Virus record (IMG/VR): IMGVR_UViG_3300044797_000101
Location: 1 to 64,000 of that record
Reading direction: 5' to 3' (one strand)
DNA from: a virus
Length of the DNA: 64,000 nucleotides
The position numbers and the translations under genes are program-made. Shown in pieces: positions 10,818 through 32,760 of this stretch; the first letter of the stretch is position 1; every line of letters begins with the position of its first letter. Under the pieces are notes generated by a model. The model worked only from the letters and a program-made list of their open reading frames with translations. It was not told the origin of the DNA and ran no database searches.

Positions 10818-13800
10818 TTAGATTGGTTCTGATAATAATTTTAATGCTGCCATTAACTCTTCATTGAAGTGATTCATCATTCCTAATGGGCTTGAATCTG
10901 CCTCTGTCATTAACTCGCTCTTCTTATTTGGCCAACGAATTAGAGTATTCTCCATAACCTTCTTGGCCTGTGAGAGCATACCATTCAAAACATCTTGAAC
11001 ATATTTTTCAGCGCCATCAAACTTTGCATAGATCTTTGAAAGCGTTTCTTTAGGTGTTAGCTTTGGTACATAGTTAACCTCTTCAGTTTGCAGTGTATAA
11101 AGTTTATCCTTCCATTGAACAACCTTCGATTCTACTGCACTAATTAGAACGGCTGCTTTTTCAATGGATTGTTGAAGTTCTGCTTCCATCTCAACACGAT
11201 TGCCTGCCTGATCAACCTGTGACATTTGTTCTTGCATCTTAGCCTGAATCTGTTGTCTAGCAGTCTCTAATGTTGCGAGGTTTGTCTCTAGAGCAGTCAT
11301 TTTGCTTAGGACGGCATCAATCTCAGGGGTTGCAGGAACAGCTTCTTGTTTAGGTGCATATTTAGGGGTAATCTTATAATCTTTAAATTGTGTCTTAGCT
11401 GGGTCAACTGGATCAGCTGATGTTTTATTCTGTGAGATTCCTTTCTCAAAATCAGAAGCTTGTTTTGTTTCAAATTTATTACCGCAATCAGTACATAGAT
11501 TTAAAACTTCAGCATCACCGAATACCTTAGGAGTTGTATTATCATTTCCGCAATTAGGGCATTTAGGAGCTGGAACAAAATGTAATTCAGAACCTTTTTT
11601 CTTTTTAACTACAGGAGCTGGAGCAACTGGCGTTGGTGCAACAGCTGGTTGCTGTACTTCAGCTGCATCATAATCATATAGATCGCAATCCTCACTACAA
11701 ACATGATCTGGTTTTGCATGTTCAGCTTCGGATTCAGCGTACCAAATATCTTGCATCTCATGCTCATCATGAATCTGTCCAAAAATACTAGACAATTCGT
11801 CATAGATCATCTCTGGATCGCTAGCTCCATATCGAGTAAAACCATCAACAAGTCCCTTCTCATTCATGGTGAGCCAAACGTAATTATCTCCATCAGTGAT
11901 AAATAGATCTTTACCTTTTTTACCAACCTGAAGACCTTTTACTTTCTTAAGTTGAGCTAATGAAACTGGAGTTGTAAAATAATAATCTGTTGAGGCCGTT
12001 TTTTCCATAGAAGCTTTTTTATCATGTTTCTCTAAAATTTCACGATCGCGACCTGGCATTACTTCCCATTTAGGACATTTGCATTCTGAACATGCACCCT
12101 TCATATCCTTATGTTCACCAATACGATCACCACATTTACACTTCATAGCATAAGCTGTTTTCAAAGATGATTCTGTATCAATAGCTGGTTCGGGATTTGG
12201 ATTTTTATCATGCTCCATAGGTTTATAACCTTCTGGATAGATAGGTTGATTGTTTGCATCCAAAAGTGTCCACATTGGCGTAGCACCGGGACGAGCACTA
12301 AATCCTTCTACATAAATAGCATATACACCTTTAGGATGATCACCACGTTCTAATTGGACCCAACTAAGTCCAAGCTGGCGACATGTCTCTTCATCATTTT
12401 TAATCTTCTGATCTAATTTGGCATTTGCCATCTTATCACTAAAAGATACAATTGTTCCACCAAGACCACTAACGTGCTGAACACGAACTGCATCCTCAGG
12501 AGGATCAGGTAAACCAATATCGTACCAGGTTGTACCAGCTTGTTTCTTTAAGGAAGCATCTTTATTCCATTCAGAAGCATGTGATTTACAAAGATAACCT
12601 GCTCCATGTTCATTCTTAACCATGTCTTCTAACTTATGAACTTTGTCACATTTAATGCACTTGGAACCATCAGCTGCAATTTTCTCAACCTTAGGTTCTA
12701 ATGATGATCGTGGTTTAACTTGATCCTTAAAGTCTGGATTAACAGCATCTGGCCCATATTTGTCCATCTGTTCTTGTTCAAATTTAAGATCTTCATCAGC
12801 CTCATTTACTGGGCTAGCAAGTGCAACCCAATCAATACGATCATGATCAGAAGGTGATAGAGAATCAAACCAAGATTGAACACCAACCTTAGCTCCAGCG
12901 CTATCTGCTAAACGTAAAGATTCATGCGCAATATATCTGGCAATTTCTTTCAAAGCTTGAATACGAGCTGCTTCATCTGGTATTTTTAAAGCTTCAGCGT
13001 ACTTGGCATCGGCTGCAACTTCATCATCCGTTACCCAAACTCGGCACCAACCATTACCTTCAAATGCTGAATCATTGGCATGCTTTTCAAGACCCTTCTT
13101 AACAAACATATAAGAGGTTTTTCCCATACTCTGTACATCGGCCAAAAGTAATTCAGCCTCTTTCTTAATAGCAAGGGCTTCATCTTGAGAACTATGAAGA
13201 TCAGTCATCTTTGGTGTTACTTGGATTGATTCAGATTTTTGCTGTTGATCAATTGTTGGCGCCATGGAAGGCTCAGCTTCTTGAGCACCCATGTTATCGG
13301 AAAGTTTTACAACACGATTAGCAGCTACATCAAGCAAATCACCCTCATCTGTTTCAACGATGAATAAGTCATTTCCTTCTGATTTATAGCTGGATACAAA
13401 TGTACCTTCAAAGCCTGCTTTTTCATCAGACATATCAGAAGATACAAATACACGGTCTCCCTTTTGAGGAGCTTGATGATCTAGTGGTTTCTTTCCCATT
13501 GGAACTACATCATGGGAAGCTGGGGTTGTTGGATCTTGTTGGACTGGTTCTTGGAGGGGATTTAAGCCATCAGCAGCTGTTTTAACTGATGCTTTTTTAT
13601 TCTTACAATTATTACATTTTAATTTGGTTGGTGCTTCACATCCATCTTCATTACATGGCCATTCTTCTTTACAATTAGGACATGTATGCCATTCCTCATT
13701 ACTAGCAACCTTACGAATATCATCATTATCGGCGCGAGCAATTTCATCTAATTCCGAAATTGCCATAACGTCTTGCGGTGTAAATGACGCGTCTTTATGA

Positions 13801-15077
13801 CATAAATTACAAGTATTCTTATCACGCATTTCTTCTGGAAGAACCAAAGAACGGCAAGAAGGACACACTCGTGTATATTTATCTAAATCTTTATCTTCCT
13901 TGCTTTTTGCAGCCTCTTCCTTAATTACAGGTTCTTCGGCTGGCTGATCATGTTTTTTTTTATCTTCATGATCCTTAAGCAACTGATCATGTGTTTCAGG
14001 GGAAACTAAATCTTCAGGAGGAGTAAGTGGCGCATCTTTCTTATCATCCTCTTTAACTGGTTCAACTTCAACGCCTGTTGGATCTGTGCCTTGGCGTTGT
14101 TCATCTACAAAGATATTTGTAGAATCTTTATCAAAACCAAAATCTTTAACTAGGATTTTCTTAATTTCATCCCAGTTGCGTCCATTCTTACGTAGGACTT
14201 CTACAAGCTCAACCTGGTCAGGACCAAACACTGAAGCAGCTTTCTGCTGCAATGCTGATTCTAACTCGGTTTTAATTTTTTCATCAATATGTTCTTGCAT
14301 GTCATCATGCTGTTTTGCTTTCTGCTCTTCAACGTCTTCATAGGACAAGGAAGCAGGAGCCAATTTATCTGTTGGTTTCTTTTCATCTTTATTCTTATCC
14401 CAAAGAGGAATATGATCCTGATCACCACCAGTTGCACTCTTCTGTTTCTTCTGATAGTCTAACAATTCATCAGTTGTAGTGAACCAAAGATTCTGCATTG
14501 TGATCTTTGCTTCACGCCAAAGTTTATCATCATCCTGAGACGCAATTGCTGTAAGACCTACTGATTTACCTTTCATAAGCGCTTCATCAATGGTCATACA
14601 TGTATTAGCTAGCATTTCAGCATATTTAGGATCAATATCTTGAAAAAGACTTTTAACCTGATTAACATCTAAAGCTTTCTTTTCTAAAGAAGCTTGGGTG
14701 GTATTCAATTTGGGCAAATTAGTGTCCACGATATCGCCCGTGTTCTCGGCGTACTTCTGACCCAATTTCTTCATGAGGTCCTTGGCTGCATCATATTCGC
14801 CCTTTTTTGTAAGAGCTGCAGCTTCAGATAAATCTGTTGAGATAAGATCAAATTGATGAGAAGCTTCCTGTTCACTCAATGTTTTTTCAAATAATTTTTC
14901 TCCGCCTTCCCAAGACAATGCAATAATAGTACTCCCTTCATCGAGAGGTACGGCATCTAATGAAATAGGACGAATAGGATTAGCTCCTACTGCTGTTGAA
15001 TCAGCAACAGAGAATTTAGCGTGTCCTTCGAAAGCTGTTTTAATTAAATGAGATACAACATCACGAAAAAATTTCAT
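10818..15077 (-). CDS. Giant modular protein (1419 aa), putative virion-internal polyprotein with K-x-A linkers
   Basis: Several CxxC Zn ribbons, an SH3/KOW-like segment (KGDRVFV), a coiled-coil C-terminus; KTA/KKA/KQA/KIA/KHA at segment boundaries. Confidence 0.7.
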   Translation of the reverse strand: MKFFRDVVSHLIKTAFEGHAKFSVADSTAVGANPIRPISLDAVPLDEGSTIIALSWEGGEKLFEKTLSEQEASHQFDLISTDLSEAAALTKKGEYDAAKDLMKKLGQKYAENTGDIVDTNLPKLNTTQASLEKKALDVNQVKSLFQDIDPKYAEMLANTCMTIDEALMKGKSVGLTAIASQDDDKLWREAKITMQNLWFTTTDELLDYQKKQKSATGGDQDHIPLWDKNKDEKKPTDKLAPASLSYEDVEEQKAKQHDDMQEHIDEKIKTELESALQQKAASVFGPDQVELVEVLRKNGRNWDEIKKILVKDFGFDKDSTNIFVDEQRQGTDPTGVEVEPVKEDDKKDAPLTPPEDLVSPETHDQLLKDHEDKKKHDQPAEEPVIKEEAAKSKEDKDLDKYTRVCPSCRSLVLPEEMRDKNTCNLCHKDASFTPQDVMAISELDEIARADNDDIRKVASNEEWHTCPNCKEEWPCNEDGCEAPTKLKCNNCKNKKASVKTAADGLNPLQEPVQQDPTTPASHDVVPMGKKPLDHQAPQKGDRVFVSSDMSDEKAGFEGTFVSSYKSEGNDLFIVETDEGDLLDVAANRVVKLSDNMGAQEAEPSMAPTIDQQQKSESIQVTPKMTDLHSSQDEALAIKKEAELLLADVQSMGKTSYMFVKKGLEKHANDSAFEGNGWCRVWVTDDEVAADAKYAEALKIPDEAARIQALKEIARYIAHESLRLADSAGAKVGVQSWFDSLSPSDHDRIDWVALASPVNEADEDLKFEQEQMDKYGPDAVNPDFKDQVKPRSSLEPKVEKIAADGSKCIKCDKVHKLEDMVKNEHGAGYLCKSHASEWNKDASLKKQAGTTWYDIGLPDPPEDAVRVQHVSGLGGTIVSFSDKMANAKLDQKIKNDEETCRQLGLSWVQLERGDHPKGVYAIYVEGFSARPGATPMWTLLDANNQPIYPEGYKPMEHDKNPNPEPAIDTESSLKTAYAMKCKCGDRIGEHKDMKGACSECKCPKWEVMPGRDREILEKHDKKASMEKTASTDYYFTTPVSLAQLKKVKGLQVGKKGKDLFITDGDNYVWLTMNEKGLVDGFTRYGASDPEMIYDELSSIFGQIHDEHEMQDIWYAESEAEHAKPDHVCSEDCDLYDYDAAEVQQPAVAPTPVAPAPVVKKKKGSELHFVPAPKCPNCGNDNTTPKVFGDAEVLNLCTDCGNKFETKQASDFEKGISQNKTSADPVDPAKTQFKDYKITPKYAPKQEAVPATPEIDAVLSKMTALETNLATLETARQQIQAKMQEQMSQVDQAGNRVEMEAELQQSIEKAAVLISAVESKVVQWKDKLYTLQTEEVNYVPKLTPKETLSKIYAKFDGAEKYVQDVLNGMLSQAKKVMENTLIRWPNKKSELMTEADSSPLGMMNHFNEELMAALKLLSEPI

Positions 15078-15105
15078 TGGTAGCTCCTAATGATCAAATC
15101 TTTTA

Positions 15106-16578
15106 TTATGAAGGAATTTGGTTCTTAACTTTTTTATCATCACGTTCAGGATCTTGGCATTTCTTAAGAGCCCAAAGGCTACCATCACCTTCACCCTTTG
15201 AATTTTGATTACCATCCTGATTAACAATCTCATATTGATCAGTTCCATCAGAAATTTTATCTCCTACCTTGTAATCCTCATGGTTTGGTAACAGATGTTT
15301 TTGAACTGTCATGGTTGAATCGTCGCTATCAAAGAATGGTTGTTTTTCACCAGCAGCTTCTTTCTCTACTGTAGCTACTTTATCAGTCAAAATTGAAACA
15401 ACCTCATTAGCCTCATAAGCCATGCGTTCATCGATAGCTGCTAATTTCTCAAGTGTCTCTAAATCAAACTGTTCTGCAAGCTTTGCTTGAACATTTAGAC
15501 CCTTTTCAATTAGGGTAGCAATTATAGATTTTTTAGGAAGAAGATACTTACCTTCTTTAACAGTAACTGGGATACTTACGGCCTTCACTGCGCCAGCATG
15601 ATCTACAGCTGTCATAATATCGAAGCCTTCTTTGGAGCTAGTAATCTCAACAGCTTTAGCTGAACCGTATCCCATACCCTGGAGTGTGGACATTAATTCA
15701 TTTGCGGCTTCATGTTCAACCTTCATCTGTGCTTCATTAGCTGATTGATCTTCAAGCTGTGCAGCCTGAACTAAATGATCTGCTGATTTTGCACGAGGCA
15801 TATTCTCTTGAATAGAATATGTTTTTTCCGCTTTAACTTCTACGGAGTCATCAAAAGGAGTATATTCAATCTCTTCAGCGTCTTTAAATAATTCTGCTGT
15901 GAGCCAAGTTGCTTTTGCAGTTGGCGATAAAGCAGCTTCTTTCTTTGATTCATGTAAATTATGCTTATGATCTTTCAAGCTACCTGCTGTCCAAAAGCTA
16001 TCATCACACTTATCACATTGATGATCACCTTTTTCTTTAGCTTCTTTTTCAATCATTGGTTCTGTAAATGATCCTGTAAATTCAACCTTAGGAGCAATGG
16101 CTGCATCCTTTAAAATTCCCTGAAGCAATGCTGCTTTATCTTTAGATGCAGAATATTCGCCCTTTCCGACGATACCAAGCACTGAATCCTGAGCGGCTGT
16201 GTGAGATACTTTTAAATATTTTGAACCATCATCTGTCAAATGGAAACCATTTAAAGATGCAACAAAGAGATCTTTGTTTTGCTCAGCAGAATTCAGAGCA
16301 TTCGTTATATTAGATTGAACATCTTCTGATGTTACTTCAATATCGTTATCATTAATTGTCATTCCAAGATCCACCGTTTTTAGTACTCCAGTATCAGCTT
16401 TAATGTGAATAGTGCCTGAAAAGTTAACGGAATTAGGAGCTAAACCTTCTGTAGTATTTAAATCAACTGTTGGATCGCCAATTAATTTAACTGATCCGTA
16501 TTTGGCTAAAAGATATCGTGCACCTTTATTTTGTGCGTCAACAATTAGTCGATTCTTTAATTCATTAAATTTTGTCAT
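15106..16578 (-). CDS. Large virion-associated protein with internal C2H2 Zn finger
   Basis: EKEA..HQCDKCDDSFWTAGSLKDHKHNLH..KKEA, a classical C2H2 finger bounded by K-x-A. Confidence 0.65.
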   Translation of the reverse strand: MTKFNELKNRLIVDAQNKGARYLLAKYGSVKLIGDPTVDLNTTEGLAPNSVNFSGTIHIKADTGVLKTVDLGMTINDNDIEVTSEDVQSNITNALNSAEQNKDLFVASLNGFHLTDDGSKYLKVSHTAAQDSVLGIVGKGEYSASKDKAALLQGILKDAAIAPKVEFTGSFTEPMIEKEAKEKGDHQCDKCDDSFWTAGSLKDHKHNLHESKKEAALSPTAKATWLTAELFKDAEEIEYTPFDDSVEVKAEKTYSIQENMPRAKSADHLVQAAQLEDQSANEAQMKVEHEAANELMSTLQGMGYGSAKAVEITSSKEGFDIMTAVDHAGAVKAVSIPVTVKEGKYLLPKKSIIATLIEKGLNVQAKLAEQFDLETLEKLAAIDERMAYEANEVVSILTDKVATVEKEAAGEKQPFFDSDDSTMTVQKHLLPNHEDYKVGDKISDGTDQYEIVNQDGNQNSKGEGDGSLWALKKCQDPERDDKKVKNQIPS

Positions 16579-16587
16579 AGCAGTCTC

Positions 16588-17190
16588 CTAAATATTAGCA
16601 GCTAAAATCTTAGAACTTTTTTGTAAGTTATCTGGTTCCCATAAGGGTTGAAGATTTGTATAATGTACTGCTTTTAACAACTGTTCTCTATCAGTAAGAT
16701 CAAAACTACTTAACGGAATTACATGATCTATATTCCATTTATCAGGACCTTTACCCCAATTATTCCAAGTCATACCAGGAAGAAATTTTGATTCAATATA
16801 CTTCTTTAAAAACTCTACAGAACAACCAAGATCTTTAACTGCTGAACCTTTCTTTTGATTCTTTTTAAGAGCGCAATATAATCGATTACGCAAATTACAA
16901 ACTAACTTATAGTTAAGATCTTCTTTTTGACGAGTCTTTTTGTACTCTTTTTCATAACCTGCTTTGTCAAAGTTATTACTGTCCCGATATTCTTGATGTT
17001 GAATTTGGATTTGTTTTTTATTATCTATGTAATATTGTTTTAAATATTCACTTAGTTCTTGTTTATGATCATTCTGATAAACAGTGTTCTGAGCATTATG
17101 ACAAATTCTGCATTGACCTTGTTTAGTTTTTCCGTTAACTAAATCTTTGTCATGTCCTTTAGGACAAAATTGAATTTTCAAACGAGACAT
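16588..17190 (-). CDS. HNH-family putative homing endonuclease
   Basis: N-terminal CPKGH..CRIC; GSAVKDLGCS...WNIDHVIPL...HYTNLQPLW..DNLQKS. Confidence 0.82.
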   Translation of the reverse strand: MSRLKIQFCPKGHDKDLVNGKTKQGQCRICHNAQNTVYQNDHKQELSEYLKQYYIDNKKQIQIQHQEYRDSNNFDKAGYEKEYKKTRQKEDLNYKLVCNLRNRLYCALKKNQKKGSAVKDLGCSVEFLKKYIESKFLPGMTWNNWGKGPDKWNIDHVIPLSSFDLTDREQLLKAVHYTNLQPLWEPDNLQKSSKILAANI

Positions 17191-17212
17191 TCTTATCTAT
17201 TCCTTAGAATTA

Positions 17213-17262
17213 CTAGGAGCGTAGGACTCCTATTAATACACTAAAATATTATACTTTTCTAC
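17213..17262 (-). promoter_or_regulatory. Conserved ~45 bp element, copy B
   Basis: AGTAGAAAAGTATAATATTTTagTGTATTAATAGGAGtcCTACGCTCCTAG. Confidence 0.7.
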
Positions 17263-17283
17263 TAATTATGGATTGTTATCTAC

Positions 17284-21258: not shown

Positions 21259-21287
21259 AGGAGGTTTACGACTATTAGATTTGAAAC

Positions 21288-21539
21288 TTACTTCTGTGGA
21301 GCTGGATAATCTTTTGCGATACGTGAAGGAATCTCACGAATATCTTCACAATGATTATTGCAACGCGGACACATTTCTAAGAGGTAATACTTAGATTCTA
21401 CTTGTTTAACGACATATAAAAAATTCTTATTTTGATTACATGCAGGGCAAAGATATCGTTCTTCAGTGTAAATCTTCATATTAGCTACCTCAGAAAGTTG
21501 TATCATGGTTATTCTCCTTGTCCTTTCTTTTGTTCGCAT
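21288..21539 (-). CDS. Zn-ribbon protein
   Basis: CPAC...CPRC; real start is probably an internal Met. Confidence 0.6.
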   Translation of the reverse strand: MRTKERTRRITMIQLSEVANMKIYTEERYLCPACNQNKNFLYVVKQVESKYYLLEMCPRCNNHCEDIREIPSRIAKDYPAPQK

Positions 21540-21748
21540 TGTTCTAAATACTTAAGATTATCTGGAACGAACTTCTCACAATCACAATTATATGTTCGTC
21601 CATACTTATTGTTTGCTGCCTGTGTAAATCCTTCGCACCATCCTGTCCAAAGTGGAGCACCTACAGTATCATGAAATGCTTTACTATGCCCGCATCTACA
21701 AGGAAAATGTTTGGGTATTCTCTTTTTCCTTGGTTTCTTTAAATTCAT
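21509..21748 (-). CDS. CxCGH Zn-finger protein with DNLKYLE tag
   Basis: CRCGHSKAFH...CDCEKFVPDNLKYLE. Confidence 0.75.
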   Translation of the reverse strand: MNLKKPRKKRIPKHFPCRCGHSKAFHDTVGAPLWTGWCEGFTQAANNKYGRTYNCDCEKFVPDNLKYLEQCEQKKGQGE

Positions 21749-22276: not shown

Positions 22277-22277
22277 C

Positions 22278-22454
22278 TTAACTCTCCTTTTGTATCGTCA
22301 GCCATTCTAAGAAGGCTAAATTCTCTATTCGTTCAAATTTACAATGACTACTTTTTCTATTATCTTTACATGCATAACAATAATCAAAGTGTCTACCGTG
22401 ATCATTCTGTTTATGCCCACACTTCTTACAAGGATACAACGATTTATCAGGCAT
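22278..22454 (-). CDS. 58 aa Zn-finger protein with ENLAFLE tag (not in ORF track)
   Basis: Hand translation MPDKSLYPCKKCGHKQNDH...CYAC...CKFERIENLAFLEWLTIQKES. Confidence 0.7.
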   Translation of the reverse strand: MPDKSLYPCKKCGHKQNDHGRHFDYCYACKDNRKSSHCKFERIENLAFLEWLTIQKES

Positions 22455-23121
22455 TTAATTCATTAATTATATCAACTGATCGACTGCATCCAACACGAGA
22501 AGCACCTGCTTCAAGCATCAGATTAAGATCTGCAAGTGTTCTAATACCGCCAGAAGCTTTGACCTTAATCCTTGTTCCTGCAACGCTGTCTTTCATAAGC
22601 TTAACGCAACGTGCTGTTTCAGCAGGCGTTATTTCTTTAAAAAAACCAGTAGATGTCTTAACAAAATCTAAATTAGTCTCTTTAGCCAAATCACAACAAT
22701 GCTTAATCTCATCATCTGTTAAAGCAGCGACTTCTAAAATTAATTTAAGGACATGACGTTCAGAAGCTTCTCGAATCTCTACCAGTTCATCCTTAATACG
22801 TTTCCAATCACCAGTTTTAACTAAGCTGATATTGATAACAGCATCAATCTCATGAGCACCCTTTGAAATCGCGCGTTCAATCTCGATTGATTTTGTATGT
22901 ATATCTGAAGCCCCAAATGGAAATCCAACAACTGAACAAACCTTAACACTAGTAAGTGGATTTGCATTCAAAAGGCTTGCAACTAATGGAACATGGAAGG
23001 AGTTAACACAAACTGAATAAAATCCGTACTTTACTGCTTCTCTACACAACTCTGTATATTTGCCTAAAGGCGCATCTGGACGAAGAAGCGTATGATCTAT
23101 CATACAAGCTATACTATCCAT
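22447..23121 (-). CDS. deoC: Deoxyribose-phosphate aldolase
   Basis: IDHTLLRP, VVGFPFG, EIDAVIN, FVKTSTGF, VKASGGIR, GASRVGCS; start MDSIAC after AAGGAGG. Confidence 0.95.
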   Translation of the reverse strand: MDSIACMIDHTLLRPDAPLGKYTELCREAVKYGFYSVCVNSFHVPLVASLLNANPLTSVKVCSVVGFPFGASDIHTKSIEIERAISKGAHEIDAVINISLVKTGDWKRIKDELVEIREASERHVLKLILEVAALTDDEIKHCCDLAKETNLDFVKTSTGFFKEITPAETARCVKLMKDSVAGTRIKVKASGGIRTLADLNLMLEAGASRVGCSRSVDIINELNA

Positions 23122-23143
23122 TAAACCCTCCTTACCTCTTATA

Positions 23144-23172
23144 AATATATCACACTTTTTGTGATTTGTCAA
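23144..23172 (-). promoter_or_regulatory. Sigma70-type promoter for deoC
   Basis: TTGACA-17 bp-TATATT; spacer contains inverted repeat TCACA-aaaag-TGTGA. Confidence 0.65.
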
Positions 23173-23178
23173 CTAATA

Positions 23179-24828: not shown

Positions 24829-24834
24829 TGGATC

Positions 24835-24999
24835 TTACCTTTTAAAGTTGGGATTAGGAATACAAGATTCATTTGATTCTCTATATCCCTCACAAGAACC
24901 TCTATCTTCATAATTACACTGAATAGTTTGTTCAGCCTTATTAAACGTGCACCAAGGTTGAATCCCTATTAAATGAAGAGCGGCTAATAGAGTAAACAT
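24835..24999 (-). CDS. 54 aa secreted four-cysteine peptide (DUF3551-like)
   Basis: Hand translation MFTLLAALHLIGIQPWC...QCNY...SC...SCIPNP. Confidence 0.5.
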   Translation of the reverse strand: MFTLLAALHLIGIQPWCTFNKAEQTIQCNYEDRGSCEGYRESNESCIPNPNFKR

Positions 25000-25000
25000 C

Positions 25001-28000
25001 TTAGATTGCTTTGTTAACAGAAGCTGGATCAGTCATTACTACATATTTACCAACAGTACTATCCCACTGCCACTTCTGTCCTGCGGGAAGTGGCGAGGTT
25101 GGAGCCTGTGTAGGACTTTCTAAATTATTATCATCAGTAGGTTGAACGTTCTGAATCAAAGGAGCTGTTGTAGCTGGGGTTGTTGAAGGAACAGTTGCAT
25201 TAGGATCATTTGTAACAACGGTTTCAGACGTTTCATCTGTTGCAGTATCTGCATGCTTTTCAGTTTCACTATTCTTTGTTTCCCATTCTTGAGCAAATTG
25301 AGGATAATTATCTTGAATATAGAATTCAAGACTGATATTTGGTTCATCCTGAAATTCTGTTGCCTCAGATTGCGTGAGAGCCAACTCATCAACGTCATTG
25401 CCACCGGACCATTCTTTAAAAGCATCAAAATCAAAACCAGGAGGAAGCATTATACCTTTATATGAAATCCATTCTGGTGCAGCGGCTGTTTTATCAGAAA
25501 TTGATCTTTTAAATTTCTTACAATCACAATCTTCAAATGAACACTCATCGTCATCAGTATGATCTTTCCACATATGTCCACAACTGCATCGAGTAACTGG
25601 TGTTTCACCAGCTGCTTCTTTCTCAATATCCTCTACAATCTCTTTATGCTCTGGTTCTGCTTTCTCATGCTCATTAAGCTTAGGAGTAATACCACATTCT
25701 TCCTCAAGCTTCCAAAGCTTATTCTCTAATTCTTCAATCATCTTATGTTCTGCACTTTCATCTCCACCAAGCTGCTCTTCAAGTAAAGCAATACCATGTG
25801 TGATATCTTCGAATAAAGCTGGAAGATCCATTGGTGCTTCTTCACCAGCTGTCTTAATAGCAGGAGCTGTTTGAATTCTTTCTTGAACTTCAGACATGCG
25901 TCCGCGCATATCAGTGATATGATCTGTCAATGATTGATATGGATTAGCCAATGTTTCAGCAAGAACATTTCTGCTGAAAGGACGAATCGCACCATTATGT
26001 TTAAAATATTCTACTTGACGAAGACGCTTTACCGCTTCACCTTTGGACTTATATGGTCCACCTAAATTTTTGCCTTTCTCACTAAGTACATGCCATCCAT
26101 CTTTCTGATGAACAACGCGCGCCACCTTATTTAGAGAACCATAAATACCTTTTCCCTCAGCGCAAGACTTGCAATATGGTTTTCCTTTCTGATCAACACC
26201 TTTGCCATTTATAATCTCATTTCCGCAAAGAGCGCATTTTAAAGATGCTTTTGTATCATTTTTAGAAGAAAATTCTTGACCGCACTGCTCACATTTAAAA
26301 TGTTTTCTATTTCCTAATATTCCTAAGAACCTGCCAAAGCCGAAGCAAATAGGGCATTCGTTAGGTTCATCATTCATACGATATTCAGCTGTTTTTTCTG
26401 ATTTAACAGGATTTGGTTTACCGCAATTTGTACAATAATCTAATATCCCAGGATACCAATATCCGCAATCAGAGCATTCACCAGCTGGATATTTTTGCTG
26501 GCCAATGGCTGTTTTTTCATTCGATACACATTTAGAATTTTTACAGATACAATTATCTGTATCACACATTTCATGATGACCAGCTTCACATTTAGTACAA
26601 ACTGACATTTCTTTTGGCATATCAGCTTTAGCTTTCAATGAAGATGTAACACCCAATGCTTTGTATACTTCATCTTGCTCTTTAGAACCTAAAGCATTCC
26701 AATGCCGTTTAAACATTACCCATGCCATCTCTTGTACATCGTCATCTGAAGGTCCATTCATAGGATCAAAAGGAGGTGGAGTCATGTTAGCATCACCACG
26801 TTGAGGAAGTATTTGTTTAGGAAGTGCTGTTTCTAAAGCTTGTTTTTCATTGCTAGCTTTATCTAACCAATTCTCATTAACTTCTTGTGTAGTACCGTCG
26901 TTAAATTTAAGTACACATGTCCATCCATATTTTTTAGTATCACCAGTTGCTCTAACAAGTGCAACTGTAGCTTCTTCACCTTTACGTGATCCGTCATTAA
27001 ATACTACCATATCACCTATATTAAACTTTGGAACTACTCTATGTGTACCTTTAGGTGTGTACAAATTATTATTGACTGCAGTTTTCTGGACAGCGAAACG
27101 TCCACAAGTAGGGCAAGTTTCACCCTCTGCACCTTCAAATGTTCCATGACAATCAGCGCATTCTTTAGCAGCTGCTTTCTTAACATCCTCTTTAGCTCTA
27201 CATTCTTTACAATATTCTTGTGATAATGAGTAGCTATCAAACTTTTTTCCACATGAAGAGCAAGTTCTTGGTTCAAATGTAGCTGTTTTTCTCTCTTTCA
27301 TCTCAGTGGCATAACCGCCACATTCTGGACAAGAGCCATGACCTGGAATACCAACACCTTTACATTTTGGACATGTAACTTCTGATTCTAAATCATTTAG
27401 GGATTCAGGTGTTGCTGGTGGGCGATTGCCTTCCATCAATTCAGCTGAGCTAACCCACATTGGTCCACCCTCTGTACAATCTAACAGGGTCTCTGATCCT
27501 GAATGTCCCAGTACCTTGTCTGAATGCCCATTATGATTCACAGGTTGACTTTCTAGTGCCGTTAGCTGGATCTTGGATGAACTACACCATCCGCGGACAC
27601 CATGCTCAATACTGGCAAATTTGACACGTCTAGCGGCTTTGTCTTCAGCCATAATAAAGATCGTAGAGCCAGCATCTAGATGAGCTATCTTCTCAACTAG
27701 TTTTGCCTTCTTCATATTTCGAGTGAGCTCGATCTCTGAGCAAAACTCTAATTGCTTCTTATTCATTGGCTGGCTATCTTTGCCCTTGATATTAAATAGT
27801 TTTTTTCCATCAGCGCTAATATCGTACCCTTCTGTTACAGGGGTCGCCAATAGTTCGCGCTTTAGGACATTCAATTTTGTAGCAGAGGTAACAGGCGCAT
27901 TATCTAGGTCTGCTTTAATTTTAAAATATTCATCTTTCAATGCTTTAACCTGAATGATCTCATCATGTAAATGAAGAGTCTTATTAGAAGCAATCTTAAC

Positions 28001-28054
28001 AAGTTTGTCAATAATCTGTTCAATATGGTTTAATTTAGCTTCTTTATCAATCAT
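25001..28054 (-). CDS. Giant modular protein (1017 aa): string of Zn ribbons, KOW/SH3 and GKNLG domain separated by K-x-A
   Basis: Eight or more Cys clusters; KFNIGDMVVF; HVLSEKGKNLGGPYKSKGEAVKRLRQVEYFK. Confidence 0.7.
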   Translation of the reverse strand: MIDKEAKLNHIEQIIDKLVKIASNKTLHLHDEIIQVKALKDEYFKIKADLDNAPVTSATKLNVLKRELLATPVTEGYDISADGKKLFNIKGKDSQPMNKKQLEFCSEIELTRNMKKAKLVEKIAHLDAGSTIFIMAEDKAARRVKFASIEHGVRGWCSSSKIQLTALESQPVNHNGHSDKVLGHSGSETLLDCTEGGPMWVSSAELMEGNRPPATPESLNDLESEVTCPKCKGVGIPGHGSCPECGGYATEMKERKTATFEPRTCSSCGKKFDSYSLSQEYCKECRAKEDVKKAAAKECADCHGTFEGAEGETCPTCGRFAVQKTAVNNNLYTPKGTHRVVPKFNIGDMVVFNDGSRKGEEATVALVRATGDTKKYGWTCVLKFNDGTTQEVNENWLDKASNEKQALETALPKQILPQRGDANMTPPPFDPMNGPSDDDVQEMAWVMFKRHWNALGSKEQDEVYKALGVTSSLKAKADMPKEMSVCTKCEAGHHEMCDTDNCICKNSKCVSNEKTAIGQQKYPAGECSDCGYWYPGILDYCTNCGKPNPVKSEKTAEYRMNDEPNECPICFGFGRFLGILGNRKHFKCEQCGQEFSSKNDTKASLKCALCGNEIINGKGVDQKGKPYCKSCAEGKGIYGSLNKVARVVHQKDGWHVLSEKGKNLGGPYKSKGEAVKRLRQVEYFKHNGAIRPFSRNVLAETLANPYQSLTDHITDMRGRMSEVQERIQTAPAIKTAGEEAPMDLPALFEDITHGIALLEEQLGGDESAEHKMIEELENKLWKLEEECGITPKLNEHEKAEPEHKEIVEDIEKEAAGETPVTRCSCGHMWKDHTDDDECSFEDCDCKKFKRSISDKTAAAPEWISYKGIMLPPGFDFDAFKEWSGGNDVDELALTQSEATEFQDEPNISLEFYIQDNYPQFAQEWETKNSETEKHADTATDETSETVVTNDPNATVPSTTPATTAPLIQNVQPTDDNNLESPTQAPTSPLPAGQKWQWDSTVGKYVVMTDPASVNKAI

Positions 28055-28066
28055 TTTAATATCCTC

Positions 28067-28573
28067 TTATTTTAATCCAGCTTCTACCAAGATCTTTTCA
28101 TAAAATTTGGTTGCTTCTTTAGGAGTACAATTGTGCTGCTTACTACTGTTTTCTGGGTGTGTCAAATATTGTAAGTTCCAACTAACATGCAAGCCTGAAA
28201 CCTTCTTACCTTGTAAAGGAATTATATGATCAACAGTTAAATCTTTAGGTTTATTTAAATAAAATTCTTTTATTCCTTCTTGTCCCCAAGATACTTCGCG
28301 TAAACCACGTTTAGCATTCGCACGTAACTTTGTTAATACTACAATGTCTGGATTTCTTTTTTTATACTCTTTATGCTGTACTTTTATTTCATCAACATGC
28401 TGATTATTATATTTATTATGTCTAGCTAAAATTTTGGCTTTATTAGCTTCATAATATCTTTTTTGATATTCTTTAATATAATCTTTATTTTGCTTAATCC
28501 ATCTATCTATATCAAACATAAAATTATCTAGCTGGTTCAGCCTGTTCAGATTCAAATTCAGAATCAACATCAT
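28067..28573 (-). CDS. HNH endonuclease
   Basis: TVDHIIPLQGKKVSGLHVSWNLQYL...NSSK; real start probably MFDID. Confidence 0.85.
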   Translation of the reverse strand: MMLILNLNLNRLNQLDNFMFDIDRWIKQNKDYIKEYQKRYYEANKAKILARHNKYNNQHVDEIKVQHKEYKKRNPDIVVLTKLRANAKRGLREVSWGQEGIKEFYLNKPKDLTVDHIIPLQGKKVSGLHVSWNLQYLTHPENSSKQHNCTPKEATKFYEKILVEAGLK

Positions 28574-30239
28574 CTTTTCCTTCTGTAATACCTTGAGCTT
28601 GCGCTGGGGAATGATCCATAATTGTTAGGTGTTCTGCGTTCTGAGCTCCAGCGATCTTAGTTAAACGTGAAGGATCAACGCCTCGATAAATAACCCCTTT
28701 GTAGGTATTCTCTTGAACGTCAACAGTTCCATCAGCATTCACAACCTTAATAAAACCTTCTGCTCCTTCAATCTTATCAACAATTTTATCGCCCACTTTT
28801 AATGGAACGCTTACATTCTCAGCTGCACCTTCTTTCTGATTATTTGTCTCATTGATAGTTTTCCATTCAGCAAGCCATTGATCAAATTCAGGTTGCAATA
28901 CTGGACGCCATTCTGGCATACCTGAGTACTTCAATTCAAATGTACCATTCTCTGGTTGTTTCATTCGAACATTTGTATCATTAATTTTAAGAGGAACATG
29001 CTGCTGAAAACGACCATTCGTCAAATCATATACAGTTGCTTCATATCCATGACCGGAGGTTGCCTTTGTGATTTGACGAATTAATTCAGGACCTCCGCTA
29101 GCTTTTTTTCCTAATTCTCGATTACGCAACGCGATTTGACATTTATGAGAACAGGTCTTAAATTTAGTATCACCTGTGTCGTTTCCACAATTAGTACATT
29201 TACCACCTGATGCTTGAACATCATTGTTACCAAACTTCTCAGCAATGGCTTTCTCAAGATCTACAATCTTCTGATCTAGACGAGCAGTCCAGGAATGATT
29301 GCCTTGAGCATAATGTGCTTCGCGCTCTTCTTTTAAATCCTTAAGAAGAGATTCATAATTGCCTTTCAAATCACCTTGTTTCTCAGTATTACTTTCACAA
29401 TTCTTACAAATTGGTTCTGCTTGAGGTTGCGGAGCAGCAACTGGCTCTTCAGCTTTCTTTTTAAGATCATGCATATAGTATCCGCCGTATTCACCATGTT
29501 TCTCTTTGATTGGTCCATCCATCCACTTAACGTAAACAAGAGGATCGCCATTGATACCAGAAGGACGCATAACATGTCCCCAAGAACCTGTAGCTCCACG
29601 AATAGGTTCAACCTTATCATCCACTGCAAATTTTTCTAATTCAGCCTTTGGTTCTTGATCACTAATAATATGAGGAGCAATCTTAGGATCTTTCTCAACA
29701 CGATCTACGATATCATCGTGCTTCTTTACAGAATCAGGAACAATAACACCGGGAGCAAGCTTAGGATCAGTTTCAACTTTCTTCACTACATTTGGATCAA
29801 CCGCAGCAACAGTCTTATCAAGCTTCTGACCTGGATTTGTAGGAGCTATATCAGAAGCATGCGTAAATTCCATATGCTGCTGTAATGCTGCTTGATCATT
29901 AAATGTTATACCACCGCAAAGAGGACAATTTACTTTCTGATCATCTGGGGTTGCTTCTGGTTGACCAGGTTGACTTGGGGTAACAGCATTAGGTGCAGTT
30001 GCACCAATATTGCCTGCCATAGGAACAGCAACTGCTTCTACCTCTTGAGGTTTTTCAGCTTTGGCTTTCGCACGTTGTTCTTTCTTTTCCTGCTTTTCCT
30101 TAAGCATGTCTTTGAGATTCTTAATGGTATCTGTAATCTCTTTAATTAAAGCAGGTTTAACCTTTGATGCGTCCATTTCTTTTAGACGTTTCTCAAGGTT
30201 ACGAATCTGTGTAGGAAGGCCAGCTGTCTTGTCGATCAT
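28524..30239 (-). CDS. Modular protein (571 aa) with C2H2 finger, SH3-like and Zn modules
   Basis: Starts MIDKTA; CPLC...HMEFTH; FAVDDKV and LKVGDKIV SH3/KOW-like segments; K-x-A linkers. Confidence 0.65.
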   Translation of the reverse strand: MIDKTAGLPTQIRNLEKRLKEMDASKVKPALIKEITDTIKNLKDMLKEKQEKKEQRAKAKAEKPQEVEAVAVPMAGNIGATAPNAVTPSQPGQPEATPDDQKVNCPLCGGITFNDQAALQQHMEFTHASDIAPTNPGQKLDKTVAAVDPNVVKKVETDPKLAPGVIVPDSVKKHDDIVDRVEKDPKIAPHIISDQEPKAELEKFAVDDKVEPIRGATGSWGHVMRPSGINGDPLVYVKWMDGPIKEKHGEYGGYYMHDLKKKAEEPVAAPQPQAEPICKNCESNTEKQGDLKGNYESLLKDLKEEREAHYAQGNHSWTARLDQKIVDLEKAIAEKFGNNDVQASGGKCTNCGNDTGDTKFKTCSHKCQIALRNRELGKKASGGPELIRQITKATSGHGYEATVYDLTNGRFQQHVPLKINDTNVRMKQPENGTFELKYSGMPEWRPVLQPEFDQWLAEWKTINETNNQKEGAAENVSVPLKVGDKIVDKIEGAEGFIKVVNADGTVDVQENTYKGVIYRGVDPSRLTKIAGAQNAEHLTIMDHSPAQAQGITEGKDDVDSEFESEQAEPAR

Positions 30240-30257
30240 GTTATTTTACCTCTTGAA

Positions 30258-30473
30258 TCATAATATTTTTACTATATCTCGTAAATGAAACGTTTCTACG
30301 CTATTATCAATAATATTTTCAGCGATTGCAACGGTTGCACATGGGTAGGATTTAATAGATCTTATAATGTATCTTTGGCCATCTTTTTCGATGACATCAT
30401 TAATATCAAGTTCTGTATTATTTTTGTCACGATAGCACATTGTAAGAACCTCAACTCTGAGACTTCCTAACAA
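30258..30473 (-). CDS. Small SH3/YopX-like protein
   Basis: RDKNNTELDINDVI resembles the D(K)NG.EI..GDI motif. Confidence 0.45.
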   Translation of the reverse strand: MLGSLRVEVLTMCYRDKNNTELDINDVIEKDGQRYIIRSIKSYPCATVAIAENIIDNSVETFHLRDIVKIL

Positions 30474-30477
30474 CGTG

Positions 30478-32760
30478 TTACTTTAATAGATCTCGTATCC
30501 AAGAAGCTGCGAAGTTTAGAGGTTTTAAAGAAGCTTTTTCTTCTGCAGGAGCTGGTGCTGCTGGTGTGGCATCAACGGGAGCTTTTTTATCTGCATCGTC
30601 ATCTTTATCAAACATTGAAGAATCTGATTCATCTTTCTTTTCATCTTTTTTAGATGTACTAAAATTTCGTGGTTCATCTGGAGAAGCACCACCACCGCCA
30701 CCACCAGAACCTTCACCTTTTCCACCTTCACCTGCACTACCAGGACCATCACCGCTGGCAACATCACCTGCGTCTGTAGTTCCACCAACGTTGCTTATAT
30801 TAATTGTAATTGGCTCACCTTTCTCACCATCACTGTTTGAACCTGTTCCGCTATTACCAGAAATGGTTACATTTACAGTACCAGCTCCACCAGTAGATGC
30901 TCCACCTGTTGCTGCACCGCCGGTTCCTGCGCCACCAATTCCGCTACCAACACCACCGGTTGAAGCACCACCGGGACTTGATCCGCCTGTTTCTGTATTT
31001 GTTCGAGTTGGGGAAGTTGTATCACCAGTTGAAGCTGCTGGTGCTGGAGGAACAACCGCTGCTGCGGCAGGAGCTGCGACTGGAGCTGCTGGTGCAACAA
31101 CTGCTGCTGGAGCAACTGCAGGTTCTGCTTTAGGTGCTGCATCTGCGGGAGCTTTATCTTTATCTTCGTCTTTATCAGCAGGAGCAACTGGAGCAGCTGC
31201 AGTTTTAAGGGAAGCTGATTTAATAGTTCCTGTAGTAATCTCTTCTTCTGATTCTTTGATATTAGTAGGTTGATCAACACGAGCAATAACTTCATTGCCT
31301 TGTTCATCAGTTGTTACAGCCCAAGGACTCTTAACTTCAGCGGTTTTAGAGAGCTCCGCAACTTTCTTAATTACTTCCTCTTTGGAAGCATGAGATTTGA
31401 TCTCATCTTTCTTCTGTTGAAGTTTATCAACCTGATCAAGATGATCTACGTATTCTGATTTATCTTTAATTGGATTTAGCTCTTTCATCTTCATACGAAG
31501 ACGTTTAAGCTTATGTGAATCTGTTTCAGCTTCTGTTTCTAAACTTGCTTTTGCATATGTTAAACCGCAAGCTTCACATGCCATATGTTCTTTCTGACCG
31601 TTATTAAGATCTTTACCCATAGATGCACAAACTGGGCAACCTGACGCAATCTTATTGAATTGAAATTTTAAGAATGAAACAGCCATTGGAACACCAGCAT
31701 GTTCATACTGCTGTTCATCTGGAGTCCATTCACCTTCGTCACTAAAATCATTCAACATTGACTGCATCTCGCTAACAGGCATATACTGCATCAAAAGATC
31801 TAGAATAACTTCTTCGCCACCACCTTCACACATCTGCTTAAAGGCTTCGCGAATAACGTTCTCATCTAAAGGTTGAGGAGCAACTTTATCAGCATCCATA
31901 ATAGAAATGTTATCAGCATTTTTCTTTATATGCTTAACTGTACCGTCTGGACCTTTTTGAGCTCCGCAATTTGCGCAAGATAAGCCTGTTGGATCTGAGA
32001 GAATCATATCTCCTGCACCACATTCACCAGAAGCAGTTTTTATAGAAGCTTCTTTGCTTGTACCAGCTACGATATCTTTCTGAAGTACTCCAGCTTCCTG
32101 GGTTACTTCTTTACGTTCATCGGCTTCGCGACCATTACCTGGGATTGCTTTCTCAGCATCTTTAGGCAATTTGAATTTATCTTCGGAAGGATGTTCAAAG
32201 TCATGCGCCTTCTCAGGAACATCAGTACGGAATAAATCTTTTTCTTTGACTTCTGCTGGTACTGCATCTTTTGTAAATTGTTTGAAAGCCTTCTGCCAGT
32301 CAAGCATTGTAGCATCAGGAATGAGCTCAAGCAGAGCCTTCTCTGCTTTCTCGCGTGAGGAAGCTACTTCTGCTTTCGCTTTCTCTTTCAATTCATAGAA
32401 CATCTCGCTTGTATTCTGCGCTTTATGACCACGCGCTTCAGCCAACATCTCGGCTAGAGCATAGTCAGAAAGGCTTGATACATCGCGTTTATAATCACGA
32501 TTCATAACTTCTTCAGGAGTTACACCATCGGCGATAACATCATCTAGAGCAGCTGTTTTACCAAGAGTCATTGCCTCTTGTTTTAGCTTCTCACGATATT
32601 CGGCTTCAACAGTGACAGGATCAAGATCTAATACATCATTAACCCAAGGATGAGCTACGACCTTACGATCAAAATGATCTTGTTTATCAGTTCCCTGACT
32701 TTCCATAGCCTCTTTAGAAATTTTATTTCCCATCATATTATCAAGCCATTCTTTTGCCAT
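30478..32760 (-). CDS. Large modular protein (760 aa) with K-x-A linkers and Ala/Pro/Gly-rich tail
   Basis: SKEA, GKTA, IKTA, NKIA, SKTA, LKTA; two Zn ribbons; GGASTGG repeats. Confidence 0.65.
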   Translation of the reverse strand: MAKEWLDNMMGNKISKEAMESQGTDKQDHFDRKVVAHPWVNDVLDLDPVTVEAEYREKLKQEAMTLGKTAALDDVIADGVTPEEVMNRDYKRDVSSLSDYALAEMLAEARGHKAQNTSEMFYELKEKAKAEVASSREKAEKALLELIPDATMLDWQKAFKQFTKDAVPAEVKEKDLFRTDVPEKAHDFEHPSEDKFKLPKDAEKAIPGNGREADERKEVTQEAGVLQKDIVAGTSKEASIKTASGECGAGDMILSDPTGLSCANCGAQKGPDGTVKHIKKNADNISIMDADKVAPQPLDENVIREAFKQMCEGGGEEVILDLLMQYMPVSEMQSMLNDFSDEGEWTPDEQQYEHAGVPMAVSFLKFQFNKIASGCPVCASMGKDLNNGQKEHMACEACGLTYAKASLETEAETDSHKLKRLRMKMKELNPIKDKSEYVDHLDQVDKLQQKKDEIKSHASKEEVIKKVAELSKTAEVKSPWAVTTDEQGNEVIARVDQPTNIKESEEEITTGTIKSASLKTAAAPVAPADKDEDKDKAPADAAPKAEPAVAPAAVVAPAAPVAAPAAAAVVPPAPAASTGDTTSPTRTNTETGGSSPGGASTGGVGSGIGGAGTGGAATGGASTGGAGTVNVTISGNSGTGSNSDGEKGEPITINISNVGGTTDAGDVASGDGPGSAGEGGKGEGSGGGGGGASPDEPRNFSTSKKDEKKDESDSSMFDKDDDADKKAPVDATPAAPAPAEEKASLKPLNFAASWIRDLLK

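Follow-up and report, generated by a model that had tools for sequence, protein, structure and literature searches.

A hydrophobic-x-Lys-x-Ala motif in seven giant phage proteins as a candidate recognition site of the prohead maturation protease

Seven giant late proteins encoded by a virus raise the question of whether a short K-x-A motif that recurs along their chains is a by-product of composition or a processing signal, and, in the latter case, which enzyme reads it and what becomes of the pieces. The proteins lie in the first 64 kb of the 119,809-bp virus contig of IMG/VR record IMGVR_UViG_3300044797_000101 (positions 1 to 64,000, the whole stretch analyzed, hereafter the window), where they follow one another on the minus strand in the transcription order 760, 571, 1017, 549, 1324, 490, and 1419 aa, summing to 6130 aa. 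An earlier note on this DNA had listed these open reading frames (ORFs), with lengths that proved correct, and had proposed that they are polyproteins cut by the head protease after K-x-A. The best explanation, to which a probability of roughly 0.68 is assigned, is that a longer form of the motif, [L/I/V/M/F]-x-K-x-A, often followed by Ser, Ala, or Gly, is the recognition site of the prohead maturation protease of this phage.

In the seven giants, K-x-A was counted 95 times against 52.4 expected from each protein's own composition, and it ranked first (z 5.9) among the gapped dipeptides with an expected count above 5. The remaining ORFs of the contig showed no enrichment (139 vs 152.1 expected); a composition-corrected comparison of this kind had been proposed as a check in the earlier note. 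The observed count of this loose motif was reached in 0 of 2000 shuffles for both the 1419-aa and the 1017-aa proteins, with a p-value of 0.006 for the 490-aa protein. The excess is confined to one spacing: K-1-A is enriched 1.81-fold, compared with 0.80- to 1.54-fold for K-0/2/3/4/5-A, A-n-K, R-1-A, and the like, the strongest competitors being R-4-A (1.54-fold) and R-2-A (1.32-fold). In 42 homologues, K-1-A is likewise enriched 1.90-fold; across the giants and homologues together, values for the remaining spacings, for A-n-K, and for R-n-A lie between 0.66- and 1.54-fold. Because the signal has a single spacing and a single order, helical periodicity—which would be expected to give a comparable excess at other spacings—and simple richness in Lys and Ala are both ruled out as its cause.

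The sequence context of K-x-A in the giants favors Leu or Ile at the second position ahead of the Lys, Thr at x, and Ser following the Ala, and the motif was therefore refined to [LIVMF]-x-K-x-A, written below as Φ-x-K-x-A, with Φ (L, I, V, M, or F) two residues before the Lys. This refined motif occurs 46 times in the giants against 11.7 expected and 50 times in the rest of the contig against 43.6, and K-x-A without the preceding hydrophobic residue is at background level in the giants (49 vs 40.9). In 2000 shuffles, the total for the giants was 11.6 ± 3.4 and never exceeded 26; moreover, every giant is individually significant, its observed count being reached by 0–13 of 2000 shuffles (Table 1). 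When ORFs are ranked by the Poisson p-value for Φ-x-K-x-A, the seven giants and the protease-scaffold protein make up exactly the top 8 of 207. Furthermore, tandem K-x-A motifs exactly five residues apart were found in six cases (KTASLKIA, KNASLKIA, KEASIKTA, KSASLKTA, KKASVKTA, and KEAFLKEA), compared with a shuffle mean of 0.46. The motif is also frequent near N-termini, with a K-x-A in the first 30 residues of 8 of the 20 head-region ORFs that reach 100 aa and of 9 of 95 elsewhere; its presence within the first 20 residues, claimed for most of the giants, was found in five of the seven and in the protease, the other two giants lacking it. Cutting at the 46 Φ-x-K-x-A sites would yield pieces mostly of 50–330 aa.

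These results bear directly on the simplest alternative, namely that Lys- and Ala-rich linkers alone give many K-x-A by chance. The giants are indeed rich in K (7–11%) and A (7–13%), and the loose motif is weak in several of them, but the shuffles are far exceeded, the spacing, order, and Arg controls fall short of K-1-A, and the enrichment recurs in two sets of homologues (49 and 40) as well as in a complete relative, as described below. Chance or composition, which the earlier note had itself named among the outcomes that could overturn its proposal, was thus tested and rejected, and it can be dismissed for practical purposes.

The relation of the motif to module boundaries can be read from homologues, among them G001, a complete 192-kb relative with terminal repeats. 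Between the giants and their relatives, modules are gained, lost, duplicated, and split between ORFs at K-x-A points: in G001, the 571-aa and 1017-aa proteins are joined as a single 1178-aa ORF, and the counterpart of the 1324-aa giant is an open frame of 2087–2093 aa with extra copies of a module here called WIDP. In alignments of the giants with G001, 11 of 38 internal ends of high-scoring segment pairs (HSPs) lie within 3 residues of a K-x-A, compared with 9.8% for random positions. In the 549-aa giant, for which the five candidate sites predict pieces of 13, 98, 110, 130, 130, and 68 aa, HSPs with G001 end at 215/221/228 and 348–353; in the 1017-aa giant, HSPs end at 258, 327, 736, and 813 and start at 606, 640, and 933. 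The same was seen on a larger scale in two independent homologue families, whose boundary statistics upheld the claim that the sites sit at module boundaries. In the family of the 1017-aa protein, K.A (that is, K-x-A) is the top gapped dipeptide in 49 homologues (738 vs 396.5), and when 43 of them were compared all against all with blastp, a K.A was found no more than 3 residues from 325 of 1579 distinct HSP boundaries (165 expected), making it the gapped dipeptide most strongly tied to such boundaries. In the 40 homologues of the 1419-aa protein, K.A again ranks first (625 vs 379), Φ.K.A reaches 290 vs 87.4, and a K.A is at most 3 aa away from 226 of the 692 HSP boundaries, where 63.6 would be expected (rank 1). 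Across the G001 genome, Φ-x-K-x-A is enriched in the 53–92 kb block of giants and head genes (57 vs 20.3) and not elsewhere (60 vs 56.4). The pair of K and A is kept in G001 at 21 of 37 Φ sites and at 15 of 38 non-Φ sites, the background product being 0.35. Pattern searches for related loci with the 1017-aa and 1324-aa proteins gave no match, nor did a tblastn search of cultured phages with the 1419-aa protein.

Individual junctions follow the same pattern. The 1324-aa giant has, in order, a weakly nucleotidyltransferase (NTase)-like N-terminus, a HAD-type phosphatase (309–419), an unlabelled region (421–640), the WIDP module (~645–780), a 2H phosphoesterase (819–923), and a C-terminal region, and the HAD match has K-x-A sites at 300/305 and 418 on either side. 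In the 1017-aa giant, the confident domain 646–687 directly follows NKVA 643. Both of these named boundary examples hold; an ADP-ribosyltransferase (ART)-like label proposed for another module, by contrast with them, was not confirmed, as no Pfam match was found and the Atlas gave only a weak lead to an Arr-type ART at rank 13.

For the 1017-aa giant, which has 19 K-x-A, seven of them Φ-x-K-x-A, a structure model was obtained with AlphaFold2 (AF2) from a 43-sequence alignment; its mean predicted local distance difference test score (pLDDT) is 62, and 361 residues fall in segments with pLDDT below 50. These segments hold 8 K-x-A against 2.6 expected (3.1-fold), the remainder of the protein holds 11 against 4.9, and 12 of the 19 are in such a low-confidence segment or no more than 3 residues from one. 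Five of the seven Φ sites (22, 295, 326, 645, and 814) are at ends of secondary-structure elements adjoining linkers, one is N-terminal, and one (124) is within a confident beta domain. The expectation that the sites map onto predicted disordered linkers is therefore borne out by the enrichment in low-confidence segments but not by the four K-x-A located inside a folded domain, which are considered below. A Foldseek search with the model returned only weak KOW/SH3/Tudor-like rows (E > 0.001).

Table 1. Positions of the giants, the head-module genes, and the candidate sites; residue numbers are those of the Ala (P1) of each Φ-x-K-x-A, and the shuffle column gives the number of 2000 shuffles that reach the observed count; positions in the L014, L033, and L035 rows are those of loci outside the window
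Feature	Position	Strand	Candidate sites (P1)	Shuffles	Details
Giant, 1419 aa	10818..15077	-	15, 135, 458, 641, 667, 801, 847, 1028, 1309 (nine)	8	Zinc ribbons, coiled-coil C-terminus
Giant, 490 aa	15106..16578	-	159, 180, 234, 380, 408 (five)	13	C2H2-like finger between EKEA and KKEA
Giant, 1324 aa	17284..21258	-	307, 328, 576, 641, 971, 1165, 1221 (seven)	6	Pfam 2_5_RNA_ligase2 3.6e-9; PHROG 1238 5.4e-22; NTP_transf_2 0.047
Giant, 549 aa	23179..24828	-	13, 111, 221, 351, 481	3	
Giant, 1017 aa	25001..28054	-	6, 22, 124, 295, 326, 645, 814		Several zinc ribbons, beta-rich domain 55-210, small domain 646-687
Giant, 571 aa	28524..30239	-	6, 205, 263, 380, 530	8	
Giant, 760 aa	30478..32760	-	18, 70, 166, 202, 282, 372, 468, 474 (eight)	4	Ala/Pro/Gly-rich C-terminal half; tandem KEASIKTA and KSASLKTA
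Prohead protease (~residues 41-240) with Lys/Glu/Pro-rich scaffold-like tail	2..2593	-	16, 251, 475, 488, 680, 839 (six)		PHROG 18299 head maturation protease 1.6e-12
Candidate release site M-Q-K-T-A/S-L, residues 247-251	1841..1855	-	251		Just past the last strand of the protease core
Candidate N-terminal site I-L-K-T-A/T-V, residues 12-16	2546..2560	-	16		Coil before the folded core
255-aa head-module protein	2600..3367	-	24		Candidate N-terminal site L-N-K-E-A/A-G; kept in G001 (RLTKEAAGN)
Trypsin-like serine peptidase	4665..5369	-			Lipoprotein-type signal sequence; Pfam Trypsin_2 1.9e-20; between portal and prohead protease
Portal	5919..7649	-	45		Candidate N-terminal site V-A-K-V-A/S-L; PHROG 16240 portal 1.4e-31
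Large terminase	8576..10225	-			Pfam Terminase_6N 9.2e-8; giants directly upstream, same strand
Capsid-like protein with GLQKIA, L014	13889-14884				
Capsid-like protein with GLQKIA, L033	13719-14657				
Capsid-like protein with GLQKIA, L035	14400-15335				

The enzyme proposed as the reader of the motif is encoded by an ORF cut by the contig start, with 864 aa visible and the C-terminus outside the contig; its homologue in G001 has 1057 aa. The 268-aa N-terminal protease domain matched no Pfam family at E ≤ 10, and sequence and profile searches against PDB returned only chance zinc-finger rows. An AF2 model from a 100-sequence alignment has a mean pLDDT of 89.8, with values of 95–98 in core residues 41–240 and lower ones on both sides, the folded core beginning at strand 47 and its last strand spanning 235–240. 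With VIA-align, the model matched the assemblin of varicella-zoster virus (VZV) with a Z of 11.4 (root-mean-square deviation (rmsd) 2.3 over 113 aa), that of pseudorabies virus (PrV) with 10.9, and T4 gp21 with 10.7 (rmsd 2.7 over 127 of 165 aa). Assemblins and gp21 fill the first 33 rows, after which come unrelated entries with Z ≤ 6.8. Foldseek similarly placed only herpesvirus assemblins and T4 gp21 at the top of its list (probability 0.93–1.00, E 0.003–0.04). Among 100 homologues, H101 and S156 are invariant and H183 is nearly so. An hhalign comparison of the 100-sequence profile with T4 gp21 gave a probability of 12.3% and paired H101 and S156 with a His and Ser140, which we take to be the catalytic residues of gp21. 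Thus, with that probability and no Pfam match, membership in the gp21 family was not found by sequence, whereas the AF2 model and VIA-align place the protein in the assemblin fold, and the window enzyme is, as modelled, an assemblin-fold Ser/His prohead protease fused to a scaffold.

A cysteine cluster, CxxC...CxH, is inserted in the protease (window region 2078–2095), with C166, C169, and C181 invariant and H183 nearly so, which suggests a zinc site inside the prohead protease. The cluster is shared with the enzyme of Dickeya phage JA13 (CSICG), whose annotated prohead protease was related to the window family by profile comparison (99.3%) and groups with the proteases of PaBG, phiRSL1, Lauda, BcepSauron, and the Erwinia jumbo phages among the best 60 of 322 matches. 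phiKZ was absent from the tblastn matches listed (best 40 of 304; best 60 of 322). A scan of 1.84 billion cluster representatives found 2247 relatives of the protease at E ≤ 0.001, including those of phage G, cluster C mycobacteriophages, PaBG, phiRSL1, and many uncultured 150–200 kb phages, and in most of the 2247 the protease is the N-terminal domain of an 800–1700-aa protein. In the family representatives P0168, P0165, P0183, and P0200, it heads proteins of 1700–2460 aa, and in these lineages, cargo modules may be fused directly to the protease.

Candidate sites within this protease family were derived in the absence of any cargo protein, from those 126 of the best 150 homologues that carry a long tail (31–83% identity). 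The first K-x-A after a conserved Asp (D231) lies 15–20 residues downstream in 56 of the 126, compared with 5.4% of control positions, and the family consensus in this region reads ...VPADxxAxIxxVxAxxxxxxxKxA.... In the window protein, the corresponding candidate release site adjoins a drop in model confidence (pLDDT 58 in residues 241–250). The last K-x-A lies 30–40 residues before the C-terminus in 33 of 116 long homologues, compared with 9% of controls, and is followed by a conserved tail; in the G001 scaffold, NTKRA/SR is ~33 residues from the end, counted on the printed sequence, and the close cluster representative P0052 is listed at 33. The logo of the release sites has K at P3 and A at P1, with L, I, or M at P5 in 58 of 71, S at P1′ in 23 of 71, and L at P2′ in 16 of 71; that of the C-terminal class has I, V, L, or M at P5 in 27 of 45. 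Compared as sequence patterns, the protease-family logo is the cargo motif, and the hydrophobic preference at P5 is confirmed independently of the giants. In the tails of 134 homologues (104,740 aa), Φ.K.A occurs 577 times against 261.5 expected and ranks first of all Φ.x.y patterns, and in the tier of tails below 40% identity, Φ.R.A is enriched 2.35-fold. Over full-length homologues, the K.A signal is swamped by the conserved domain and coiled coils and becomes clear only in the tails with the P5 residue.

Sites of the same form occur near the N-termini of other head proteins. L033 and L035, a lineage of ~36% protease identity, retain the N-terminal site of the protease (IRKQA at residue 14) and also have K-x-A in the leaders of the portal and the capsid protein. 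Candidate portal sites comparable to that of the window were found in phage G (MAKQA/AS at 20) and in L033/L035 (K-x-A at 20). Indeed, Φ.K.A is enriched in the head module of phage G (22 vs 8.2) and not in another 42 kb of that genome (14 vs 11.7), with sites near the N-termini of the portal, gp9, and gp20 (LKKTA at 12) and on both sides of the core of gp19, those at 45 and 52 preceding the core; further predicted gp19 sites are LEKVA (250) and LLKIA (276). In Catera, gp94, a 1369-aa protease fusion, has 18 K-x-A vs 8.2 expected.

Two further features of leaders were noted. The capsid-like proteins of G001 and of the L033/L035 lineage share an N-terminal GLQKIA ~27–47 residues from the start. 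Moreover, the leaders of the 1419-aa protein (..VVSHLIKTA, 15033–15077, minus strand) and of the protease (..GSHLRILKTA, 2546–2593, minus strand) are alike, the former being kept almost letter for letter in 40 homologues, so that it may double as a common targeting peptide and a cut site.

The layout of the family can be compared with that of herpesvirus assemblin (UL26 type), which is made as a scaffold fusion, releases itself at an R site, and cuts the scaffold near its C-terminus at an M site (PMC4498786). In pseudorabies virus, the sites are YLQA-T and VQA-S, and the cut at VQA-S removes 37 C-terminal residues that hold the capsid protein (PMC4498786). The window protease likewise has an N-terminal assemblin-fold Ser/His domain fused to a scaffold, its candidate sites—known here as sequence patterns—lie directly after the protease domain and, in its family, ~30–40 residues from the C-terminus, and P1 is Ala with P1′ often Ser. 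Because this layout and the P1 Ala match the quoted assemblin sites, the cut that we infer is placed after the Ala. The phage enzyme differs in the Lys at P3 and the hydrophobic residue at P5, compared with the quoted herpesvirus sites, in its bacterial host, in the zinc-ribbon-like CxxC...CxH insert, and in that the motif also punctuates ~6000 aa of extra modular proteins.

The earlier note had drawn its parallel instead with T4 gp21 and phiKZ gp175. As described for SPN3US gp245, such a head protease cuts at an A-x-E motif, with Ser preferred at P1′, at 14 sites in nine proteins, its substrates including the portal, the capsid protein, abundant ejection proteins, and itself (PMC10052503). 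The resemblance would lie in a head protease with a three-residue code, N-terminal propeptide trimming, and self-cutting, and T4 gp21 shares the fold of the window enzyme. However, the T4, phiKZ, and SPN3US enzymes cut after Glu rather than at the Ala proposed here, mostly remove N-terminal propeptides instead of separating many folded modules per chain, and include the window protease in no sequence-level family; nor were x-x-E patterns (T4 gp21-type, [L/I/A/S/G]-x-E) found among the 12 most enriched gapped dipeptides of the giants, a test of enrichment and not of cleavage. The proposed parallel therefore stands for the fold and not for the sequence family or the code, and by analogy, the closest behavioral counterpart of the window protease is herpesvirus assemblin rather than T4 gp21 or the phiKZ enzyme.

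A different reader is conceivable, since the head module also encodes a Trypsin_2 peptidase, which could cut at Lys, two CLP_protease genes are present, and the motif has an invariant Lys. ClpP degrades processively without a site motif. The trypsin-like protein is 68% identical in G001. It has a lipoprotein-type signal sequence and is thus probably exported, so that it may act in lysis, in exclusion, or as a processing enzyme beyond the cytoplasm, and its gene was not found (E ≤ 0.01) in the complete, more distant relatives G006 and G007, which keep the motif in the protease N-terminus and the capsid leader; as a conserved reader of the motif, it was therefore rejected. Likewise, the five proteases listed by the phage G authors include no trypsin-like peptidase (10.1101/2024.12.16.628780), yet the phage G head module is enriched in the motif. 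As the motif instead tracks the assemblin-fold protease family, a reader other than the prohead protease is very improbable.

Alternatively, the motif may be an element that is not cut at all, either a helix-capping linker or a peptide that binds the scaffold, portal, or capsid interior for loading. Leaders such as FFRDVxSHLxKxA are conserved over their full length and not only at the K and the A, and some sites fall in predicted helices (residues 4, 20, and 292/293 of the 1017-aa protein), both of which would fit such a role. A docking peptide, however, is not expected at ~35 internal junctions or in tandem pairs five residues apart, nor would it be expected at both of the positions where the related assemblin-scaffold fusions are cut. 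Furthermore, the information is held in only three positions with free neighbors, as in protease sites. Such an uncut junction or docking element is accordingly improbable, if less so than another protease.

Several observations weigh against the interpretation of the motif as a prohead protease site. The loose K-x-A is not individually significant in four of the giants or in the protease-scaffold, the shuffle p-values being 0.065 for the 549-aa, 0.075 for the 760-aa, 0.15 for the 571-aa, and 0.26 for the 1324-aa giant and 0.29 for the protease-scaffold, and it was in the cargo proteins that the P5 refinement was first noticed. The AF2 model of the 1017-aa giant (mean pLDDT only 62) places 11 of 19 K-x-A outside low-confidence segments, and four (115, 122, 139, and 145) are within a confident beta domain, in which K145/A147 is nearly invariant, so that, on this model, some K-x-A of this protein are surely not cut sites. 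Conservation is modest: where aligned proteins share less than 60% identity, 59% of the Lys of K-x-A are retained compared with 45% of other Lys, and 54% of the Ala compared with 35%; 16 of 37 Φ sites are not kept in G001; and the K or the A is missing from some N-terminal leaders of homologues. About half of the protease homologues do not have the release-site pattern at its position. Regarding the enzyme, its Foldseek E-values are all above 0.001, and sequence methods place it in no curated protease family. Finally, the capsid protein of phage G has no K-x-A, so that, despite the GLQKIA shared elsewhere, general capsid-protein trimming is not claimed; the sequences suggest that it may be lineage-specific. 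On balance, cleavage after K-x-A by the head protease, as proposed, finds good support in the comparison of homologues, with the restriction that not every K-x-A can be a site.

If the prohead protease does read the motif, a course of events can be proposed. The seven giants would be built into the prohead interior together with the protease-scaffold, and after closure of the shell, the protease would cut behind the Ala. It would free itself at the release site just past its catalytic domain and cut the scaffold at several internal sites, removing the last 30–40 scaffold residues, by analogy the tail that holds the capsid protein, and short N-terminal leaders would be trimmed from the portal and small head proteins. 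The giants would be cut at ~35 junctions into domain-sized pieces of ~50–330 aa, including zinc ribbons, the HAD phosphatase, and the 2H phosphoesterase, which would stay in the head and leave with the DNA. In this scheme, the cutting itself, the bond after the Ala, the packaging of the giants, and the injection and activity of the pieces are deduced from sequence patterns.

Alternatively, the giants could be cut by the same protease as disposable core or scaffold material that, like T4 gp22, is driven out of the head to free space for the DNA, and would then not be a store of injected effectors. In line with this, sites of the same kind are about as dense in the tails of the protease-scaffolds, much of the sequence of the giants is low-complexity, coiled-coil, or Ala/Pro-rich, and the propeptides of SPN3US, which are cut at several sites, for the most part exit the head (PMC10052503). 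In contrast, the pieces between sites are domain-sized and include the HAD phosphatase, the 2H phosphoesterase, and confidently folded domains, modules that are hard to explain as filler and that are shuffled as units between relatives. Because of these enzyme modules and their shuffling as units, injected effectors are favored over clearance, and a disposable core is considered unlikely, although of all the alternatives, it is the one with the most weight.

Giant phage "polyvalent" proteins were described by Iyer et al. (2017), who predicted their injection, likened them to RNA-virus polyproteins, and predicted the release of their domains by embedded peptidases, mainly zincin-like (~36% of members; not obligatory) (PMC5512222). 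The giants of the window resemble them as giant late proteins that mix unrelated enzymatic and zinc-binding domains: at 490–1419 aa, they hold a HAD phosphatase, a 2H phosphoesterase, a weak NTase, and many zinc ribbons, in keeping with large, multi-domain, conflict-type proteins in a late or virion context. In contrast to the embedded peptidases of that prediction, Pfam detected no peptidase family in the seven giants at E ≤ 0.01, and the reader proposed here is a head protease encoded elsewhere that acts on a linker code. The idea of a polyprotein strategy in a phage, put forward by the earlier note, thus agrees with the polyvalent-type layout but is not new, having been predicted in that paper (PMC5512222). 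A literature search of main texts found no report of K-x-A or Lys-x-Ala specificity for phage head proteases. The new elements are, apparently, this unreported specificity, a head protease that acts in trans instead of being embedded, and sites between many folded modules.

The surrounding genes place the giants in the late region. The minus strand carries 207 of the 221 contig ORFs, and in the direction of transcription, many small genes are followed by the seven giants, the large terminase, the portal, small head-module genes, and the protease-scaffold ORF. A protease gene joined to a scaffold is typical of the stretch between the portal and major capsid protein of assemblin-like systems. 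It follows the portal and small genes in the window; in G001, the 1057-aa protease-scaffold is followed by a 158-aa protein and then by a 331-aa capsid-like protein, and the order in phage G is the same. The terminase is 30.5% identical to gp1 of Bacillus phage G and the protease 35% identical to that of phage G, which is, by the sequences of these two proteins, the nearest cultured relative. Amid the cargo genes is a DeoC/LacD-family aldolase gene (8.8e-18; 22447–23172, minus strand), with a 232-aa homologue at the same place in G001 (65939–66637). The two ClpP paralogues, both on the minus strand, are at 33189–33815 (CLP_protease 9.1e-26) and 43649–44302 (1.7e-66), the first being much more divergent.

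Beyond this phage, it can be tentatively suggested, at somewhat less than even odds, that a large clade of tailed-phage prohead proteases shares a herpesvirus-like, cut-after-Ala Φ-x-K/R-x-A specificity, and that some lineages extended it to injected, capsid-internal polyproteins. In such lineages, dozens of enzyme and zinc-finger modules would be loaded as a few giant chains, cut apart within the capsid, and delivered by injection as individual effectors. Should the code be real, it would provide a sequence rule predicting both capsid-loaded proteins and their cut positions in a large, mostly uncultured group of phages, and it would give concrete form to the predicted "polyprotein" processing of phage polyvalent proteins. 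Furthermore, this clade of phage proteases would share with herpesvirus assemblin its substrate logic and domain layout—an Ala at P1, with release and maturation sites—so that the structural kinship already known between tailed phages and herpesviruses would gain a functional trait. Among cultured phages, the code is seen in phage G and in cluster C mycobacteriophages, Catera being one of them.

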